From: an uncultured Gammaproteobacteria bacterium
GTDB taxonomy: Bacteria; Patescibacteriota; Patescibacteriia; JACQRZ01
Direction of reading: 5' to 3'
Assembly (NCBI GenBank): GCA_964621085.1
Contig: CAZUKY010000001.1
Location: 167,226-231,225 of the forward strand
Length of the DNA stretch: 64,000 nucleotides
The first letter of the stretch is position 1. Each line of letters starts with the position of its first letter. Under the pieces are notes generated by a model. The model worked only from the letters and a program-made list of their open reading frames with translations, was not told the origin of the DNA and searched no databases. Of the stretch, positions 17,420 to 25,823 are shown piece by piece. Position numbers and translations under genes: made by a program.

Positions 17420-17914
17420 ATGACTCTTCCTGTTATCACCGAGGGAAATCCGATCCTTCGCGCGCGCGCCGCCGAGGTTGCAGACTGCGCAGATCCGGAT
17501 ATCCAAAAACTGATCGATGACATGATCCCGACCATGTATGAAAAAGACGGGATCGGACTTGCTGCCCCGCAAGTCGGCGCAAGCGTGCGCATCGCCGTCA
17601 TCGTGCCGGATCCGGAGCGCTTTGAGGACTTCCGATACTCGAGAACGGCACTCGTTCTCATCAATCCGACGATCGTTCGCCACTCATGGCGAATGGAATC
17701 GGGAGAAGAGGGCTGTTTATCCGTTCCAAATATGTACGGGCAGGTGCGCCGATGGAAAAGCCTCACGGCCACCTACCTCGACCGCGACGGCACCCATCAA
17801 ACAATACGCGCAAAGGGACTCATGGCACGCGTCATTCAGCATGAGATCGACCACCTCAACGGCATTCTTTTTATCGACAAGGCGAAAAACACCTACCGCA
17901 TCCGACCGTCCTAA
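17420..17914 (+). CDS. def: Peptide deformylase
   Basis: Motifs GIGLAAPQVG, EGCLSVP and HEIDHLNG. Confidence 0.9.
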   Translation: MTLPVITEGNPILRARAAEVADCADPDIQKLIDDMIPTMYEKDGIGLAAPQVGASVRIAVIVPDPERFEDFRYSRTALVLINPTIVRHSWRMESGEEGCLSVPNMYGQVRRWKSLTATYLDRDGTHQTIRAKGLMARVIQHEIDHLNGILFIDKAKNTYRIRPS

Positions 17915-18243
17915 CTGTTTTTTGATCTCTCTTCTATTTTTTTTGCATCGCTTGCAAGCATCGCATTCCATGCAGCTGCAAGATCGATGTTCAGCTCGTG
18001 GGCGATAAAGAGCGTTTCTGCCATGATGTCTGCGAGCTCGTCTGCAAGTTTCTCTTTTATTTCTTCCTCGTTCAATCCCTCAGCATAGCGATAGCCCTTC
18101 AACTGAAGGATACGCTTCGTCAGGTTGCCAATCTGGTATTGCAGATCTTGCGCTGCAATCTCATACGTCCAGGTTTTCGTCCCCTGCCTATCGTATTCCT
18201 TGAACATGCGAACGATCTGCTCGGTCATTGTTTTGATGTCCAT
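17911..18243 (-). CDS. MazG-like nucleoside-triphosphate pyrophosphohydrolase (all-alpha NTP-PPase), small form
   Basis: 110 aa with an EExxE/D-type helical core (EEEIKEKLADELADI). Convergent 4-nt overlap with def. Confidence 0.55.
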   Translation of the reverse strand: MDIKTMTEQIVRMFKEYDRQGTKTWTYEIAAQDLQYQIGNLTKRILQLKGYRYAEGLNEEEIKEKLADELADIMAETLFIAHELNIDLAAAWNAMLASDAKKIEERSKNS

Positions 18244-18257
18244 ATACGAGGAAGGGG

Positions 18258-18950
18258 TTATTTTTTTATCCGCATGTCAAACTCCTTTGCGAGATTCGTG
18301 AGCGGCTTCGCCGCAGCGGCAAATAAATCGGATTTTGAAAAGTATTCGATTGTTCCTATCTTTGTCATAACGTCGTACTCGCCAAGTGCGGAGTCCAAAA
18401 AAATAAATCCCGCCTGGCCGAACAATTCGTACGCATCGTCGGTATAACCATCAAAGTAGAGCTTTACTCCAACCTTCTCCCCTTCATCGTGAAGGGTATA
18501 ATGAATCGATTCTGCGCTGAGCGCAAGATCGCCGAAACGTAGTTCTAGGTCAGCAAGGTCGTCTTTTCGCTGCTTGAATTTCTTGATATCCCATCGCTCC
18601 AAAGGCGGACGAACGTCGTAGAGCTTCTCAACGACTGAAATCGCATCTGAAATACCGCTTGGCGAAATGACAAATTCACGCTTCCCATTCACGACCGGTC
18701 CGAACTCAAAAGAGAGGTTCGAGTGAATTTTTCTCAAATGATCATCAAGTCCCTCGAGAGCAGCCTCGGGATAGTTCTCAATATCAAACAAGGCGTCTTC
18801 ATTCTCAAGAAAGAAGCTCCAAAATTTTTCATATTGATTCGGCCGTTGAAGAAATGAAAACATATTTGTTTGAATCGTCGAGTAAAAAATTAAGACGGTG
18901 GCAGTGATAGCGGCAGCGACAAGAGCGATTGTTATCAATACTTGTTTCAT
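18258..18950 (-). CDS. Membrane-anchored hypothetical protein (N-terminal TM helix)
   Basis: TM segment VLITIALVAAAITATVLIF followed by a ~200-aa soluble domain. 4-nt start/stop overlap with the upstream MazG-like gene. Confidence 0.5.
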   Translation of the reverse strand: MKQVLITIALVAAAITATVLIFYSTIQTNMFSFLQRPNQYEKFWSFFLENEDALFDIENYPEAALEGLDDHLRKIHSNLSFEFGPVVNGKREFVISPSGISDAISVVEKLYDVRPPLERWDIKKFKQRKDDLADLELRFGDLALSAESIHYTLHDEGEKVGVKLYFDGYTDDAYELFGQAGFIFLDSALGEYDVMTKIGTIEYFSKSDLFAAAAKPLTNLAKEFDMRIKK

Positions 18951-19315
18951 ACGGCAACCCCCTTATATCCCTCGATCGGATTCGAGTGTACGCCCTTGCT
19001 TTTTTCAATCGGATATTTTGTCCTGTTTTTTTCGAGCTTATCCAAGATCGCCTGATCGAGGTTAATATCTAGTTTATACGCGAGCGTAAGCAGATACATG
19101 AAGATATCTGCGACCTCTTCTTCGACTTTCTTTTTCTTCACGGGATCGGCATGAAGATTCGCAATCTCTTCACTGCTGAGCCAACGATAACACTCTGCCA
19201 ACTCTCCGACCTCGCTCATGAGCGCGACGACAAGATCCTTGGGATTATGGAACTGATCCCAGTCGCGCTCGTAGTTAAACAGGCGTAATGTTTCTTTCAG
19301 TTGCTCAAGATTCAT
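18947..19315 (-). CDS. MazG-like / dCTP-pyrophosphatase-like NTP pyrophosphohydrolase
   Basis: Typical of the MazG-like all-alpha family: ELAECYRWLSSEE ... EEEVADIFMYLLTLAYKLDINLDQAI. Confidence 0.6.
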   Translation of the reverse strand: MNLEQLKETLRLFNYERDWDQFHNPKDLVVALMSEVGELAECYRWLSSEEIANLHADPVKKKKVEEEVADIFMYLLTLAYKLDINLDQAILDKLEKNRTKYPIEKSKGVHSNPIEGYKGVAV

Positions 19316-19364
19316 ATAACTCTACTTTAAACCATTTGCCACGCAGTGCAAGGATGGGTATGAT

Positions 19365-19928
19365 TCAGCGATCTGGAAAAGCGATGTGATTCCATCCCAG
19401 TTGTTCGTTTTCCGATTGAAGTCCTTTCAAGATCGAGTAGCCATGATCATCTGAATTCTGGATCGCATCAAACGTTGGCCCGTCAACAAAATATACCTGA
19501 ACGCCGGCATCGAGCATCGCTTTAAACGCCGATTCGTATTCCGTCTTTCCAGTCGGCCGAACCGGAACGCGACTCGTCCACTCTGTCGCGCTTTTTGACG
19601 CATCGCAGTGGAATGTATCAGAGGGTATCGCATAGATTGCGCCGCCCGCATCCATCGCTTCAAACCGTTCGCGGTCGCTAATAATGATCGTACGTACGCC
19701 ATCATACGTGCTGATCTGGGTCCAGCTATCATTTGTAGGCACGAGGAATCGGGTAGCCCCTGCCTTGTCCGGCGTTGCGAATACGACCGGTCCCTCGTTT
19801 GGATCGCGTACCGTTTCTGCCCGCGGCTCGAACTCCGTGATGTCTTTATTCGACGACGCGTGATACAACACAGCCGGCTTTTCAAGCTCGATTTTTTGAA
19901 AACTCACTTCCGGCAGTTCATTGGTCAT
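19365..19928 (-). CDS. Hypothetical protein (ORF opens at 20063; Met giving a 4-nt overlap with the upstream gene preferred)
   Basis: Continuous ORF, last gene of the minus-strand block containing the PEP-utilizing proteins. No family recognised. Confidence 0.4.
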   Translation of the reverse strand: MTNELPEVSFQKIELEKPAVLYHASSNKDITEFEPRAETVRDPNEGPVVFATPDKAGATRFLVPTNDSWTQISTYDGVRTIIISDRERFEAMDAGGAIYAIPSDTFHCDASKSATEWTSRVPVRPTGKTEYESAFKAMLDAGVQVYFVDGPTFDAIQNSDDHGYSILKGLQSENEQLGWNHIAFPDR

Positions 19929-20917
19929 AGTATGATTTTTCGTGCAATGCCGTTTGCCGCATCGACTTCTATGATATCGCCTTCTCGAAACACGCGTGTC
20001 GCTATTCGAGTGCCGGTAATCGTCGGTATGCCGAGTTCGCGCGCACAGATCGCCGCGTGACACGTGATGCCACCTTCGTCGGTAATGACGGCACCGGCAC
20101 GGGCGAATGCCGGCGCATACGTGGCATTGGTCATGACTGCAACAAGAATGTCTCCCTCGCCCACGCGATCCAGATCTTCCCGATTACGGACAATGCGCAC
20201 AATCCCGCGTGCCGTGCCCGGCTGAGCGCACGCGCCGCGCACCTCCGAAACACTCTCAAGCTGCTCATCGTCTTCCGGATTTCTCAGCCCCTGCTCGGCA
20301 AGATATTCCTGAAAGGACTTCTCAAGCATTATACCTTCGACACGAAGATATCCCTCGAGACGGCTCGACATCCTTTCTGCGGCCTCTGAGACATTCTCAA
20401 GATCGTCCAATGTTAGGACATGCGCAAGTCGCGGATCCAATCCTTCTTCTTGAAGCAGATCGGCAATGCAGTGCTCGATCTCTGCATCGAGCTCGTACAG
20501 GATTCCTTCGGAAAGATTTCGGGCGTGCCAGCTTTCAGGACAAGCCTTTACAAATGCATCGCTCACGACAAATACATAAAACGCCATCGCGCTTCCGATA
20601 AGCGCATGAATCTCGCGCAAATGTTCAAGCGTCACGTGATTTTTCAACTCCTTCAGTCGATGAATCTGTTCGCAAAATACCGTATTCTGTATTTCAAACA
20701 AACGATCATCCTCAATAAGTCGCTTCGTGATCGTCTCTTTAAAATACGCAAAATCGGATGCCCGATGGTAGAAATGCACGCGCGCGCCGTCATAACGGAA
20801 AATGACCGGATACTCCCACCCGAAATATTCTTTGAAATATTGTTTGTACCCCAACTCCCAGGCTGTGACTGAGAACAGGCTCAAATCTCGTTTTACTGTT
20901 GGACGCAAGAGATGCAT
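19925..20917 (-). CDS. PEP-utilizing-enzyme mobile (phosphohistidine swivel) domain protein with an unrelated ~240-aa N-terminal domain (paralog B')
   Basis: C-terminal GTARGIVRIV...ILVAVMTNATYAPAFARAGAVITDEGGITCHAAICARELGIPTITG is the PEP-utilizers His-domain signature with a catalytic His. Confidence 0.65.
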   Translation of the reverse strand: MHLLRPTVKRDLSLFSVTAWELGYKQYFKEYFGWEYPVIFRYDGARVHFYHRASDFAYFKETITKRLIEDDRLFEIQNTVFCEQIHRLKELKNHVTLEHLREIHALIGSAMAFYVFVVSDAFVKACPESWHARNLSEGILYELDAEIEHCIADLLQEEGLDPRLAHVLTLDDLENVSEAAERMSSRLEGYLRVEGIMLEKSFQEYLAEQGLRNPEDDEQLESVSEVRGACAQPGTARGIVRIVRNREDLDRVGEGDILVAVMTNATYAPAFARAGAVITDEGGITCHAAICARELGIPTITGTRIATRVFREGDIIEVDAANGIARKIIL

Positions 20918-21020
20918 AGCGGTAGTATAGTGTCACTTTAAGCTCAAGTTGCTAAAAATGCAAAAACGGAAGGCGCACACGGCACCTCCCGCCCAGTTGG
21001 TATCTGATGACTCTCCACTT

Positions 21021-21590
21021 CTACCGAACGGCTCCGAGCCACGCAACCCGCATGTCAGGAAACTCGACGTCGAACCTCCAGATATCGCCGCAGGCGGAGT
21101 TCCGCCCGTGTTCCTTATTGTGCCTCCGCCAGGCAGCCATCATCTCGTCGTCTGTCGGGTAAAAGTTGTCCGCATCAGCAAGAGCCGCCTCCATGATCAT
21201 ACCGCTCGTGATGGCGACAATCACGGCTCCAGGTTCGCACCTCTGATCCCGGAACCTGCACCACTTGCTGTTGAGCACGTGCCACGGCTCGGCGCGGCCA
21301 TACATCTTCCCTCCTACATAGACCGATGTTGTGGTGAGCTCTTGGACAAAGCTGAACAGCGTACGGGGCGGAAAACCCGCTTGCATCGTTTCGGACATGC
21401 GCCGAGACGTACCAACGAAGACTTTGCTCGGCGTGCCGATGGCTGCCAACCTTTCCGCCAAAACAGGTCCGTGTTCTGCAACCCATATTGCACTCAAGCC
21501 CGGATCCGCCTCTTCCAGTTGGCGAGCATCGTCGACGCTTGGCTCACCATGTCGCACCAAATACAACGTTGCGAGCTTGTTTTTCGTCAC
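21021..21590 (-). CDS. Histidine phosphatase superfamily protein (phosphoglycerate-mutase-like)
   Basis: N-terminal LYLVRHGE catalytic RHG motif. Confidence 0.7.
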   Translation of the reverse strand: MTKNKLATLYLVRHGEPSVDDARQLEEADPGLSAIWVAEHGPVLAERLAAIGTPSKVFVGTSRRMSETMQAGFPPRTLFSFVQELTTTSVYVGGKMYGRAEPWHVLNSKWCRFRDQRCEPGAVIVAITSGMIMEAALADADNFYPTDDEMMAAWRRHNKEHGRNSACGDIWRFDVEFPDMRVAWLGAVR

Positions 21591-21670
21591 TCCCTATCTC
21601 CTCGGACACCACTCTTACAGACGCAAAAATCCTATCCAATGAATAGCTTTTTGTCAATCAACAAGAATGC

Positions 21671-22786
21671 TCATTGCGTGCGTTTTTCGAGAATTCTCAC
21701 CACTCCGCGATCTGCGTCAACTTCGACAATATCGCCGTCGCTGATTACTGACGTTGCGTTTCCGGTTCCGATGATGCATGGCTTCTTTAATTCACGGGCA
21801 ATAATCGCCGGATGGGAGAGGATCCCGCCTGTATCTGTTATGATCGCACCTGCGCGCTTCATCAACGGAACATAGCGCACGTCGGTACTCACGCAAACAA
21901 GAATTGCGCCTTCCGGAAAATCGAGACTGGAAACGGTTTCATCGGTAACGCGACACACCAGCCCCCTTGCAATACCCGAAAATGCGCTCACCCCCTTCAG
22001 TTCAGCGCTGTCTCCGCCTTGTTGAATAAATACATGCGGCGCTGGCGTGGGAATAGAGCGCGGCATCATGCGATTGAAATCAAAAAAATACAGATCATCA
22101 CCGGGAACAACCGCCTCGAAATAGCCCAGCAGATAGTTATTTGAAAACATCGCGTTGACCGCATCGCAAAGCGCATCTTGGCGCACGCTCTCCGCAACAT
22201 GGAGGTGGGCGACCATGCGTTCAACCTGAGCAATTGCCTCCTCATTATGCGCAGACCACTGCCACGTCTGGTAGTCGAAAAAGAACCGATACGCTTCACC
22301 CGTAAGTATGCCCTGTGAAAGCTGGTAGGGCGTCCCCTTGGCTATCTCGCCAAAGAGCGCATCTTCCTTGATGACGAGAAAAATCGACCAGCGAATGTCT
22401 GACTCATCGGGAAACACATGAACGGTATATGAATCCAGATCAATTTCTTGCGCACGGAACCATTGCTCGTAGCATTCCGCAATCGATAGCCCCCTATTGC
22501 GCAGCTTTGGAAGATCCGGCGTGTTGGGAATCAAACGAAAGGCGCAGCGCTCACTGCCATGATCCTGCAAAAGCCTGCGCACTGCATCGCTCTTTTCTTG
22601 CATTTCCCGCGCCGTAAAAACTTTCGGCGCACGAAATGGAACGCCGATAAGTCTGTTCAAGATCGAGAGGCGCTCTGTTTTTTCATTATCTTCCTTGCGA
22701 AATTCGGCAGACTCCTCAAGTTGTCCGATTTCGGCGAACCATTCGGTCATGGATGGGTGGTATGGTTTTGTTTTTGATTGAGACAT
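21671..22786 (-). CDS. PEP-utilizing-enzyme mobile-domain protein with a novel ~270-aa N-terminal (putative substrate-binding) domain (partner B)
   Basis: C-terminal GIARGLVCRV...ILVCVSTDVRYVPLMKRAGAIITDTGGILSHPAIIARELKKPCIIGTG swivel domain. Lies 22 nt downstream of the PPDK_N gene. Confidence 0.65.
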   Translation of the reverse strand: MSQSKTKPYHPSMTEWFAEIGQLEESAEFRKEDNEKTERLSILNRLIGVPFRAPKVFTAREMQEKSDAVRRLLQDHGSERCAFRLIPNTPDLPKLRNRGLSIAECYEQWFRAQEIDLDSYTVHVFPDESDIRWSIFLVIKEDALFGEIAKGTPYQLSQGILTGEAYRFFFDYQTWQWSAHNEEAIAQVERMVAHLHVAESVRQDALCDAVNAMFSNNYLLGYFEAVVPGDDLYFFDFNRMMPRSIPTPAPHVFIQQGGDSAELKGVSAFSGIARGLVCRVTDETVSSLDFPEGAILVCVSTDVRYVPLMKRAGAIITDTGGILSHPAIIARELKKPCIIGTGNATSVISDGDIVEVDADRGVVRILEKRTQ

Positions 22787-22808
22787 ACGAATTCAAAGGA
22801 ATCACATA

Positions 22809-23774
22809 TTACTGCTGTCCCGCAGCTTCCTGCCACGTAAGCGTTGTGATCGGTCTGCTTTGCGTTATAAAGAATTTTTCGTCGGCACATGCCCACTCGA
22901 TATCGCACGGAAAACCGTAATAATTCTCGATCTTCACTATGATGCCTGATAGCTCTAAAATTTTCTCGTCAGACAAAACTTGCTCTTTTTCTTGTTCCCT
23001 CGAAAGCGCGCGCCACTCGTTTCCGCCGCGTGCGGCACGATACAGTCCCTTCACGTGCTTCTGAACAGCTTTATCAAAAATGCCGCGCGGTTGTTTTTCG
23101 ACAACATACGTATCGGGCGTCACCTGTCCCGAAACGATCGCCTCTCCAAGACCGAAGCCGGCCTCGATGACCATCTGATTGTAATCCTGCGTCACCGGAT
23201 GAACGGTGAACGCGATCCCAGACACCTCGGACTGCACCATCGCTTGGACGACGACAGCAACGGATACCGGCGAGTCATGGAGTCCTTTTTCGAAACGATA
23301 AAAGATAGCCCGCGGCGTGAAGAGCGACGCCCAGCACCGCTTGATGTTGTTGAGAAGATCTTCTTCTGTCGTATTAAGATATGTCTCAAGTTGGCCGGCC
23401 CATGCAGCCGATGCGCTGTCCTCCGTCGTTGCGGAAGATCTTACGGCAACGTACTCGCATGCAAGAGCGTGGAATGCATCCGTAATCTCTCTCGCCAGTG
23501 CTTCTGGTATTTCTCGCGCGATAATTAGCGCTTGAATCCTTTCGGATGCCGCCTCGACCGTATGCATCTTTGCGTGATCTACCGTATGGAGAATGGCATC
23601 GATGTCGACGGAAAGCTGCTCGCGTTCAATGAAAGTATCGAATGCATCCGATAGGATGACATATCCTGGCGGAACCGAGATGCCCGCCCGGGTCATTTCT
23701 CCAAGCGACGCACCCTTTCCCCCGGCACGAGAGACATCATTCTTTGTAATCTCTGAAAACCATTGTACAAACAT
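22809..23774 (-). CDS. Stand-alone PEP-synthase / pyruvate-phosphate-dikinase N-terminal ATP-grasp nucleotide-binding domain protein (PPDK_N)
   Basis: Diagnostic of the PPDK_N family: GGKGASLGEM, VAVRSSATTEDSASAAWAGQ and VQAMVQSEVSGIAFTVHP. No His or TIM-barrel domain in this polypeptide. Confidence 0.75.
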   Translation of the reverse strand: MFVQWFSEITKNDVSRAGGKGASLGEMTRAGISVPPGYVILSDAFDTFIEREQLSVDIDAILHTVDHAKMHTVEAASERIQALIIAREIPEALAREITDAFHALACEYVAVRSSATTEDSASAAWAGQLETYLNTTEEDLLNNIKRCWASLFTPRAIFYRFEKGLHDSPVSVAVVVQAMVQSEVSGIAFTVHPVTQDYNQMVIEAGFGLGEAIVSGQVTPDTYVVEKQPRGIFDKAVQKHVKGLYRAARGGNEWRALSREQEKEQVLSDEKILELSGIIVKIENYYGFPCDIEWACADEKFFITQSRPITTLTWQEAAGQQ

Positions 23775-23798
23775 ACTCCCGCTGCCTGAGACGCCATT

Positions 23799-24326
23799 TT
23801 ATGTGCTCACCCGTTCCTGCTGATACAACCGAACTGCTGCCGCAATCTCCTCTGGAGTGCCGTCGATGCACTCATAGTGCCGCGCCTCATCCTCATTTAC
23901 CCACGCGTACCCATCAAACGCGCCCTCTTCAACCTTTACTTCTCCATCTTTATAGCGTGCTGCCATCTTGATAAGAATCACGGGAATGCCGTCCGGACGC
24001 ACGAAAAATACACTTTTGAGGTATGTGAGGTCTGGGTGGATCGTAACACCAGCCTCTTCGGCTACTTCGCGCATCAGCAGTTCTTCGAGCGCATTATCAA
24101 AATCAAGAATATCGCCATTGATGCGCGAGGGTTTCGACAGATCGAACTGCCCCCACTCAAGCTTTCCGCCAGGAGTTGCATACCTTCCCGGATGCGCCTT
24201 TTCATTCATGCTTCGCTTCAAGATAAGACACCGTCCATCCGACTCGCGATAGATCACAGCGTTGACAACAAAATACATAAGCTTATCGGACTTCGCGTGC
24301 TCCAAGGATATCTTTTCTGCAGGCAT
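23799..24326 (-). CDS. NUDIX hydrolase
   Basis: Nudix box GGKLEWGQ...EELLMREVAEEAGV. Confidence 0.8.
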   Translation of the reverse strand: MPAEKISLEHAKSDKLMYFVVNAVIYRESDGRCLILKRSMNEKAHPGRYATPGGKLEWGQFDLSKPSRINGDILDFDNALEELLMREVAEEAGVTIHPDLTYLKSVFFVRPDGIPVILIKMAARYKDGEVKVEEGAFDGYAWVNEDEARHYECIDGTPEEIAAAVRLYQQERVST

Positions 24327-24390
24327 AGAGTGATTTTTTATGATAGAGAAAGCTTATCAAGCCAACAGGATCGCAGCAAGTCAACACAGA

Positions 24391-24801
24391 CTAGGCCGTC
24401 GGTAACTCATGGCGATAATCTTTGACTTCGTCTTCCATTTCAACAAGAACTGCCGTAACAGGGACGATTTGGTGATGTTTTTCTATTTTAAAATACTTAA
24501 TGGGCTTCCCCATATCAGACGCTATTTTTATCTCGGCGAGCACGCCATTTGAAATAGCTCCAAACACCCACAACTCATCGGCACGCTTTACAAGATTGTT
24601 ATTGCCCTCACGAACCAAGTCCCTGTCGACGGTGTCCAATAAAAAATAATCAAAAATCATGAACGGATTTAACGGCACGCCGTGCTGCTCAATGACGAAC
24701 TTCGACACGAACATACGATAATAGAACAAGTGCTTTGACATTGCCGTATACACCAGGTTTTTATCAGCAGTCAATTGTAATGCTTCGTGGGTAAATGACA
24801 T
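24391..24801 (-). CDS. Hypothetical protein, possibly of the nucleoside 2-deoxyribosyltransferase-like (DUF4406-type) fold
   Basis: Weak motif similarity (ELWVFGAISNGVLAEIKIASDMGKPIKYF). Speculative. Confidence 0.35.
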   Translation of the reverse strand: MSFTHEALQLTADKNLVYTAMSKHLFYYRMFVSKFVIEQHGVPLNPFMIFDYFLLDTVDRDLVREGNNNLVKRADELWVFGAISNGVLAEIKIASDMGKPIKYFKIEKHHQIVPVTAVLVEMEDEVKDYRHELPTA

Positions 24802-24899
24802 AAATATGATATTTAACTCTTATCACGAAGAGTCCCCATTAACGGGAGTCTCTCTTTATGGTAGCTTACAGAAATACTGAAAAACATCAAAAGTCCGCT

Positions 24900-25823
24900 A
24901 TGAATCCCCGCATTATTTTTATGGGAACGCCCCTTTATGCGGTCCCTTTTCTTGAGGGATTGGTTGCAGCCGGGATGAAGCCGGTCGCTGTCGTGTCGCA
25001 ACCGGATAAGCCCGTCGGACGGAAGCAGGTTTTCGAACCCACTGCCGTCAAGGCGGCTGCCGAGAAACACAGTATCCCCATTCTGCAGCCGCAAAAAATC
25101 CGCGATGAGGAATGGGTTGAAAAAATTCGCGAGCTTGCGCCGGATCTGATCGTCGTTGTCGCCTTCGGGCAGATCATTCCGAAGAGCATTTTGGATATTC
25201 CGAGATATGGGTGCGTTAACGTGCATCCCTCGCTCCTTCCCCGCCACAGAGGCGCAGCTCCACTCCAGGAGACGATCCTCTCAGGCGATACCGAGTCTGC
25301 GGTCACGATCATGCTCATGGACGAACAGATGGATCACGGACCTGTCTTGCGTCAGGAGCGATTTGATGTAGACCCGGCAGAAACGTATGACTCACTGCGC
25401 AAGAAAACAACACGGATCGGCGTGTCGCTTCTCATCGTGACGCTGCATGACCTGCTTGCCGGCGCAATCGAGCCGCAGGAACAGGATCACGCTAAGGCAA
25501 CATATACCCGACTCCTCACCCGCGACGCCGGAAAGATCGACTGGTCCGAAGACGCGCTAACGATCGAACGCAAAGTGCGCGCGCTCAATCCCTGGCCGGG
25601 CGTCTGGACAGAATGGAATGGCAAGCGTTTAAAAATCCTCCGCGCACGGCTTTTCTCGCTCGAACCACTTCCCCACACATCAGTGTTTGAAATCCTCACC
25701 CCGCATACGGATCCTGTCCTGGTTGCGCACTGCAATCCGGGCGCATTGATTATCGATGAAATCCAGCCCGAAGGAAAAACGCCAATGGACGGACTCTCAT
25801 TCGCTCGCGGGTATCTGCACTAA
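24900..25823 (+). CDS. fmt: Methionyl-tRNA formyltransferase (ORF opens at 24858; MNPRIIFMGTP start preferred)
   Basis: Formyltransferase N-domain IIFMGTPLYAVPFL...VVSQPDKPVGR, motif NVHPSLLPRHRGAAP, and a C-terminal Fmt domain. Confidence 0.9.
   Translation: MNPRIIFMGTPLYAVPFLEGLVAAGMKPVAVVSQPDKPVGRKQVFEPTAVKAAAEKHSIPILQPQKIRDEEWVEKIRELAPDLIVVVAFGQIIPKSILDIPRYGCVNVHPSLLPRHRGAAPLQETILSGDTESAVTIMLMDEQMDHGPVLRQERFDVDPAETYDSLRKKTTRIGVSLLIVTLHDLLAGAIEPQEQDHAKATYTRLLTRDAGKIDWSEDALTIERKVRALNPWPGVWTEWNGKRLKILRARLFSLEPLPHTSVFEILTPHTDPVLVAHCNPGALIIDEIQPEGKTPMDGLSFARGYLH

Follow-up and report, generated by a model that had tools for sequence, protein, structure and literature searches.

Introduction

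The question raised by this locus is whether three neighbouring genes, one for an ATP-grasp protein and two for proteins ending in a phosphohistidine swivel domain, encode a single phosphotransfer system divided over separate polypeptides, and what such a system might phosphorylate. The genes, which we call A (22809..23774), B (21671..22786) and C (19925..20917), lie on the minus strand of a 64-kb stretch of contig CAZUKY010000001.1, and this whole stretch of 64,000 nucleotides is referred to below as the window. A sequence-only reading of the same DNA had proposed a split enzyme resembling rifampin phosphotransferase (RPH) and phosphoenolpyruvate (PEP) synthase, in which A would load phosphate onto two alternative partners, accompanied by further genes of the same block; all six of the open reading frames (ORFs) that it placed on the minus strand are present at the coordinates given here. 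Our analysis leads us to favour, with moderate confidence, the view that the three products make up a split, two-component dikinase of the phosphohistidine-swivel kind, in which one loader serves two alternative carrier/acceptor subunits.

Two-component dikinases built from an ATP-grasp subunit and a swivel subunit have been published, namely HpeHI, PpsAB (phenylphosphate synthase) and CreHI (PMC12167813), so the earlier statement that the split architecture lacks a described counterpart does not hold. There, phosphate goes from the ATP-grasp subunit to the swivel His of its partner and then on to a substrate held on the partner's other domain, the catalytic His lying in a motif of the form T/SxxGGxxxH (PMC12167813).

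Results

The product of A, 321 amino acids (aa) long, matches the Pfam domain PPDK_N over residues 16-315 (E 1.3e-94), has no further domain and comes from the only PPDK_N ORF in the 64-kb window. It was matched over its full length by PEP synthase (8a8e, 2.4e-74) and by the ATP domain of RPH (5hv6, 1.6e-60), as well as by HpeI (9goj, E 2.2e-52, residues 3-311), and these structure matches together with the Pfam result confirm that the gene encodes the ATP-grasp domain by itself. In sequence A is closest to the N-terminal domain of PEP synthase. Its NCBIfam scores stay below all equivalog cut-offs, with 331 bits compared to a cut-off of 598 for PEP synthase (NF005057) and 287 bits compared to 999 for the RPH models (NF041857 / NF000283). 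Judged from these matches, A is a complete, stand-alone PPDK_N-type ATP-grasp protein, the counterpart of HpeI and of the RPH ATP domain, and we propose that it is the ATP-binding loader.

B (371 aa) and C (330 aa) both end in a swivel domain. The swivel of B (aa 259-371 and the stop codon, 21671..22012) matches the Pfam family PEP-utilizers over residues 290-361 (E 8.8e-24), while that of C (aa 223-330 and the stop codon, 19925..20251) does so over residues 254-323 (E 6.4e-22). The catalytic-His motif reads TDTGGILSH in B and TDEGGITCH in C, and both His325 of B (21812..21814) and His287 of C (20057..20059) are invariant in alignments of about 40 homologs; the DEGGITCH of C also fits the PEP-synthase consensus, including the position of the regulatory Thr. 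Similarity between B and C is confined to the swivel domain (50% identity), and NCBIfam gives the two proteins 90-106 bits with the PEP synthase models and 50-54 bits with the RPH models, all below cut-off and the latter from the swivel only. B thus ends in a swivel with a catalytic His and C couples a different N-terminal domain to a second one, as the sequence-only reading had it. Each belongs to a large family: B has more than 1000 homologs, nearly all from Patescibacteria, which are 355-390 aa long (about 365) and 41-51% identical over their full length, and C has more than 1000 matches and represents a conserved, full-length Patescibacteria family of about 333 aa.

With just 22 nt between them on one strand, A and B could be the pieces of an ordinary pps or ppdK gene broken by a frameshift, or else non-functional remnants. 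However, A ends in a TAA stop codon, which is followed by a 22-nt spacer, and B is read in a different frame, such that joining the two across 22786..22809 would need both stop read-through and a change of frame. The proteins of the B family, moreover, begin with the same aligned N-terminal sequence and have invariant residues from position 12, while 15 or more related loci have an A ortholog that stands alone, as a PPDK_N protein of about 305-330 aa. Both families are strongly conserved, with 58% mean column identity and an invariant His. No remnant of a TIM barrel was found in the window or in the B and C loci; A, B and C contain no PEP-utilizers_C domain of Pfam, and phmmer searches with genuine PEP-synthase barrels found nothing in the window. 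The N-terminal domains of B and C are not divergent PEP/pyruvate barrels either, being modelled as an ATP-grasp fold and a helical domain, respectively. Because the B and C families are conserved, A orthologs stand alone and a barrel remnant is missing, we consider the frameshift refuted, and an artefact or decayed gene of any kind is extremely improbable; the junction, the families and the gene order and fusions described next all indicate that the split is real.

Related loci were gathered with pattern-seeded scans, in which ORFs were called naively and duplicates removed by sequence only. Among the matches listed, 41 distinct B orthologs could be viewed together with 1 kb or more of the sequence upstream. 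In 18 of these 41 listed loci the gene right beside the B ortholog encodes PPDK_N, making it the commonest immediate neighbour, and in 6 others a PPDK_N gene lies in the same same-strand cluster, which shows that the linkage of A and B is conserved. There are also single-chain fusions of 650-700 aa (P0262, P0277, P0280, P0301 and P0312) in which PPDK_N, the N-terminal domain of B and the swivel follow one another in the domain order of RPH, and these natural fusions substantiate the earlier proposal that A and B together mirror that three-domain order. The complete trio of A, B and C occurs in three genomes, that of the window and those of L139 and L141, where the C ortholog stands divergent beside an A-(swivel)-B cluster.

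Whether one loader could serve several partners was addressed with 76 loci, among the matches listed, seeded on the swivel domain in genomes from the candidate phyla radiation (CPR) and from DPANN. At least three swivel-only genes are present in 27 of these loci, at least five in 17 and at least eight in 7, the maximum being 13. A stand-alone grasp gene was found in 18 of the 76 loci and never more than one per locus, and exactly one such gene is accompanied by at least two swivel genes in 15 loci (examples with one loader and many partners are L001, L008, L012, L015, L039, L080 and L099). These comparative data support the idea of one ATP loader serving several partners; the layout, which appears to be new, is a general one and is met repeatedly in CPR as well as in DPANN.

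In L012, L014, L015, L017, L039, L053, L080, L083 and L099, swivel genes follow one another in long tandem arrays on a single strand. The array proteins are about 350 or about 480 aa long, with up to 13 in one 20-kb locus, and no array locus has more than one stand-alone PPDK_N gene, which mostly marks an end of the array. Giant multi-swivel ORFs of up to 3761 aa occur in 5 of the 76 loci. Those from DPANN, uninterrupted and of 1993 to 3761 aa (L016:8273-19558; L048:1-8814, which runs off the start of its locus; L018:5565-11624; L070:247-6228), have swivel scores well above that of a single copy, and one PPDK_N is present in each of L016, L018 and L070. Such ORFs resemble entire arrays that have been joined into polyproteins.

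The N-terminal domain of B (aa 1-258, 22013..22786) gave no match in single-sequence or profile searches of Pfam, NCBIfam and the PDB. The family to which it belongs is a compact one: 1.84 billion representatives yielded 223 clusters at 50% identity, and many of the 39 invariant positions of the B family are Arg, Lys, Asp or Glu. By hhalign the domain is unrelated to the N-terminal domains of the CPR/DPANN swivel-protein clusters to which that of C is homologous. The AlphaFold2 models of B and C are confident (pLDDT 91 and 94.5), and in Foldseek the whole B model is collinear with pyruvate phosphate dikinase (PPDK) and PEP synthase over 310-526 columns, an ATP-grasp followed by a swivel, compared to RPH, which matches over a 113-column swivel only. 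On account of this difference B looks like a miniature PPDK/PpsA-like two-domain module that has no PEP/pyruvate barrel. The N-terminal domain, which had been described as an unrelated one, is instead predicted to have a divergent ATP-grasp fold; we regard it as a cryptic and highly divergent ATP-grasp-like domain and propose that it holds the site of the second substrate.

One 736-aa protein, P0254, combines NTPase_I-T (DUF84, the inosine/xanthosine triphosphatase family), a methyltransferase, a B-type N-terminal domain and a swivel. It may be a real fusion or an artefact of gene calling, and if real it hints at a nucleotide link.

Several observations weigh against the split-dikinase reading. 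The B ortholog is solitary in the sequence in view in 8 of the 41 listed loci and has only other swivel genes near it in 9. In five loci B, or a B'-B tandem, is immediately preceded not by A but by a gene for the barrel of a pyruvate kinase (PK). ORF D, described below, and a terminator-like hairpin separate C from A and B, and the use of A by C is deduced from gene order at other loci. The hhalign comparison of the N-terminal domain of B with the PPDK_N family alignment was not significant (local P ~0.04; global mode uninformative), so that the homology of this domain to ATP-grasp proteins is argued from the predicted fold, and the correspondences between B and PPDK_N (CAFRL~VAVRSS, GYFE~DIEW and IDYNR~ITQSRP) were seen by eye rather than computed. 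Finally, with an ATP-grasp-like domain of its own, as modelled, B might load its His without A.

This last possibility can be developed into an alternative in which B works by itself as a mini PPDK/PEP-synthase module: its ATP-grasp-like domain would bind the nucleotide and exchange phosphate with its own swivel His, the other substrate site would reside on a separate protein, such as a PEP/pyruvate barrel, and A would mainly serve C-type partners. B would then be a split PPDK/PEP-synthase-like or a PEP-dependent nucleotide-phosphorylating enzyme. The Foldseek collinearity with PPDK and PEP synthase and the swivel-only match to RPH speak for this alternative, and the invariant Arg, Glu, Asp and Asn residues of B appear by eye to line up with the phosphate- and Mg-binding motifs of PPDK_N. 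The solitary B orthologs also agree with it, as do the five loci in which a PK barrel-only protein of about 345 aa (PF00224, no PK_C) is encoded upstream of B and no PPDK_N gene is in view (L010:7758-8801, L107:4672-5694, L116:813-1853, L123:416-1453 and L130:885-1904); this protein may be an alternative, PEP-linked partner. However, the five proteins are mutually homologous, for which reason the neighbourhood may reflect one lineage, and the 64-kb window has neither a PK-like barrel nor a PEP-utilizers_C barrel. The N-terminal domain of B, as read from the sequence, lacks the glycine-rich GGK motif found at the N-terminus of PPDK_N. It is the PPDK_N gene that is most often next to B, and several independent fusions place a canonical PPDK_N before the N-terminal domain of B, where it would be redundant if B loaded itself. 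We consider a self-loading B unlikely, and continue with A as the proposed loader.

The N-terminal domain of C (aa 1-222, 20252..20917) is predominantly helical in the AlphaFold2 model. Searches of Pfam, NCBIfam and the PDB extend past the swivel only through a short profile alignment into RPH; here the profile of the C family aligns to RPH residues 701-866, reaching the end of the rifampin-binding domain. With hhalign the domain is homologous to four CPR/DPANN swivel-protein clusters (E 2e-35, 5e-17, 2e-10 and 6e-9), which are the N-terminal domains of a very large CPR/DPANN swivel-protein set, and it contains three invariant arginines. Taken together, the alignments identify it as a putative reduced partner domain of the RPH/HpeH substrate-binding type, with the homology to RPH at its C-terminal end.

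This kinship raises the alternative that B and C are RPH-like kinases that inactivate antibiotics or other xenobiotics, or that scavenge host-derived small molecules, in which case the CPR/DPANN arrays would be a detoxification or scavenging battery running on one ATP loader. The relation of the C domain to the rifampin-binding domain and to a large, diversified partner family would fit, and up to 13 tandem paralogs would fit a broad substrate coverage. Characterized relatives act on small hydroxylated molecules, rifampin and phenolics (PMC12167813), and a resistome survey of CPR contains rph-like hits, which it merely lists (PMC8651080). However, the C domain has about 220 aa compared to about 430 for the rifampin-binding domain, only its C-terminal helices align, the NCBIfam scores for RPH are far below cut-off and the N-terminal domain of B is not of the RPH type at all. 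The presence of three invariant arginines speaks more for an anionic substrate than for a hydrophobic drug, PADLOC has zero matches to A, B or C, and there is no other resistance context at this locus. A role against xenobiotics or in scavenging is thus quite doubtful. A reading of A, B and C as a defence system or phage genes was also rejected, given the PADLOC result and a PHROGs search of the three proteins that returned a generic 'kinase' match only.

The genes of the proposed dikinase are part of a minus-strand block (17911..24801) between def (17420..17914, plus strand) and fmt (24858..25823, plus strand). These two genes are usually adjacent; here about 7 kb of minus-strand genes separate them (17420..25823 of the window). 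The small flanking genes of the block have a G+C content of 0.43-0.46 compared to about 0.55 for the window, and the block may be an inserted island. On the minus strand 25 nt upstream of A is a Nudix hydrolase gene (23799..24326), recognised as such before and now placed well above the Pfam gathering score (NUDIX, E 6.2e-12, 46.1 bits compared to 21.1), with a readable Nudix box REVAEEAG. It is preceded by a minus-strand DUF7768 gene (24391..24801) that matches a phage nucleoside 2-deoxyribosyltransferase family. At the other end, the minus-strand ORF 19365..19928, previously called unknown, is real and can now be assigned to a family, DUF6886 (Pfam E 3.4e-9); its ATG overlaps the stop codon of C by 4 nt (ATGA, 19925..19928), which suggests translational coupling. 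Three more minus-strand genes complete the block: a MazG-like pyrophosphatase gene (18947..19315, E 6e-13), an unknown 230-aa ORF (18258..18950) and a second MazG-like gene with a weak match (17911..18243). The MazG-like, DUF7768 and Nudix genes make up a local cluster of nucleotide house-cleaning genes. The terminator-like hairpin (20964..20994, minus strand) lies between ORF D and C and has 13 pairs, 7 of them G-C, followed by a T-run; overall counts of terminator-like sites are near the shuffled expectation. The position of this hairpin suggests that A-B(-D) is transcribed separately from C-DUF6886.

ORF D (21021..21590, minus strand), between B and C, had been read as an RHG histidine phosphatase. 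The RHG tripeptide is indeed present, and the expected position of the second His reads ITSG in the sequence. The match to His_Phos_1 is below threshold (E 0.15, 12.2 bits compared to a cut-off of 21.7, profile positions 1-62 only), and D has no NCBIfam or PDB match. Its sole match among 5.8 billion proteins is itself, and the gene call in the database, of 125 aa, excludes the N-terminal residues that carry the RHG motif. The codon-usage score is weak as well (0.10 compared to about 0.26 in neighbouring genes). With a sub-threshold Pfam match, no homolog and a weak codon score, the phosphatase assignment is not upheld and D is best described as an orphan ORF. A SixA-like phosphohistidine phosphatase, which would otherwise have suited the system, was rejected since D has no homolog and stays below the Pfam threshold; L139 has a His_Phos_1-like gene, which shows no detectable relationship to D.

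None of the accessory genes follows the dikinase genes through related loci. Relatives of D, DUF6886 and DUF7768 were absent from every related locus examined. Nudix genes account for 6 of 143 proteins flanking the B clusters compared to 2 of 97 five to six genes away (p = 0.48), so that Nudix is not enriched near B orthologs and was rejected as a component. MazG was likewise rejected, as a MazG-like gene is the immediate 3' neighbour of the B ortholog in L114 only; L126 and L127 have weak MazG matches 3.4-3.8 kb downstream of the B ortholog on the opposite strand. In L005 (6411-9546) and L140 (7564-9621) a Nudix gene is upstream of the C ortholog, overlapping it in L140, and a guanylate kinase gene is downstream, directly in L140 and after two small ORFs in L005; because the gene order is the same, the two loci count as a single observation. 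Nucleotide-metabolism genes in general are common both beside the B clusters and five to six genes away, and provide a weak regional hint. The Nudix, D, DUF6886, MazG-like and DUF7768 genes are local neighbours and not conserved components; the inclusion of the phosphatase, the Nudix hydrolase and the DUF6886 gene in the system is not sustained, none of them being a conserved neighbour in related loci.

Discussion

By analogy with the characterized enzymes, A would bind ATP and load its beta-phosphoryl group onto His325 of B or His287 of C, the intermediate being pyrophosphoryl- or phospho-His. The swivel domain would then turn back to its own N-terminal domain and phosphorylate the substrate bound there, and the products would be AMP and Pi (or PPi). 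The domain identities, the invariant His residues, the conserved linkage and the fusions are observed, while this phosphotransfer and the substrates are inferred. The substrate of C would be a small molecule, held in a reduced helical pocket that is probably of the RPH type and has the three invariant arginines along its walls. The pocket of B has many invariant Arg, Lys, Asp and Glu residues. Because the modelled acceptor site of B has a nucleotide-binding type of fold, we tentatively suggest a nucleotide, or else some other metabolite that is phosphorylated or anionic, as its most plausible substrate.

A bolder proposal is that in CPR and DPANN a single stand-alone ATP-grasp charger phosphorylates many swivel partners (two at this locus, and elsewhere up to 13 tandem genes or fusion proteins of several thousand residues), each delivering phosphate to a different substrate, and that B is a hitherto unrecognized double ATP-grasp enzyme which moves phosphate or pyrophosphate onto another nucleotide. 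We hold this to be speculative and unlikely to be right. If it were true, the donor for B-type enzymes would be ATP or, in some lineages, PEP by way of the PK-like barrel, and B would give organisms unable to make nucleotides de novo a compact means of salvage.

It was not until 2025 that two-component dikinases were recognised as a subfamily, and then solely in aromatic catabolism and with one partner per loader. The locus described here and its relatives suggest that the same logic may extend far more widely, into the bacteria and archaea with the smallest genomes, in which up to 13 tandem partner genes are surprising. Identifying the substrates could expose unrecognised salvage, detoxification or host-interaction metabolism in CPR and DPANN, and the partners could supply small, modular kinases for biocatalysis. 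In a limited literature search, where absence is not proof, we found no description of the CPR/DPANN arrays, of the layout with one loader and many partners, of half-size partners or of a second, cryptic ATP-grasp within a partner. To our knowledge, an ATP-grasp does not serve as the substrate domain of any characterized dikinase, and the feature that the models predict for B, a cryptic second ATP-grasp in place of an RPH-like substrate domain, would be new.

The closest known systems are HpeHI, PpsAB and CreHI. As in these, the ATP-grasp (HpeI, PpsB) is separate from a partner that combines a substrate site with a C-terminal swivel His, and loader and partner genes are adjacent, here with the 22-nt spacer. 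HpeI matches A over its full length, the N-terminal domain of C resembles HpeH and RPH at its C-terminal end, and the swivel motifs of both B and C conform to T/SxxGGxxxH. The partners of the published systems, however, have a mass of about 70 kDa and contain a large RPH-like domain, whereas B and C have 330-371 aa and are about half that size. Each published loader has one partner, compared to two different ones for A, and those systems act on phenolics in aromatic catabolism, a context that is lacking in the CPR hosts. The substrate domain of B, with its predicted ATP-grasp fold, also differs from the RPH-type domain of their partners.

RPH itself (PDB 5HV1/5FBS) has the order of ATP-grasp, substrate domain and swivel that is seen in A plus B, in A plus C and in the natural A-B fusions, and its ATP and swivel domains are clearly homologous to those of A, B and C. 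It differs in that its single chain, about 865 aa long, contains a rifampin-binding domain of about 430 aa, which B does not have and which in C is reduced. PEP synthase and PPDK share with B the collinear ATP-grasp and swivel and with C the His motif GGxTCHAAI, but they contain a TIM barrel, which is absent from A, B, C and the window, and their canonical ATP-grasp is here on a separate polypeptide. In the Bacillus-type PK with a C-terminal PEP-utilizers domain (PDB 2E28), by contrast, the swivel is fused to PK and there is no ATP-grasp, while the window, which has A, contains no PK barrel.

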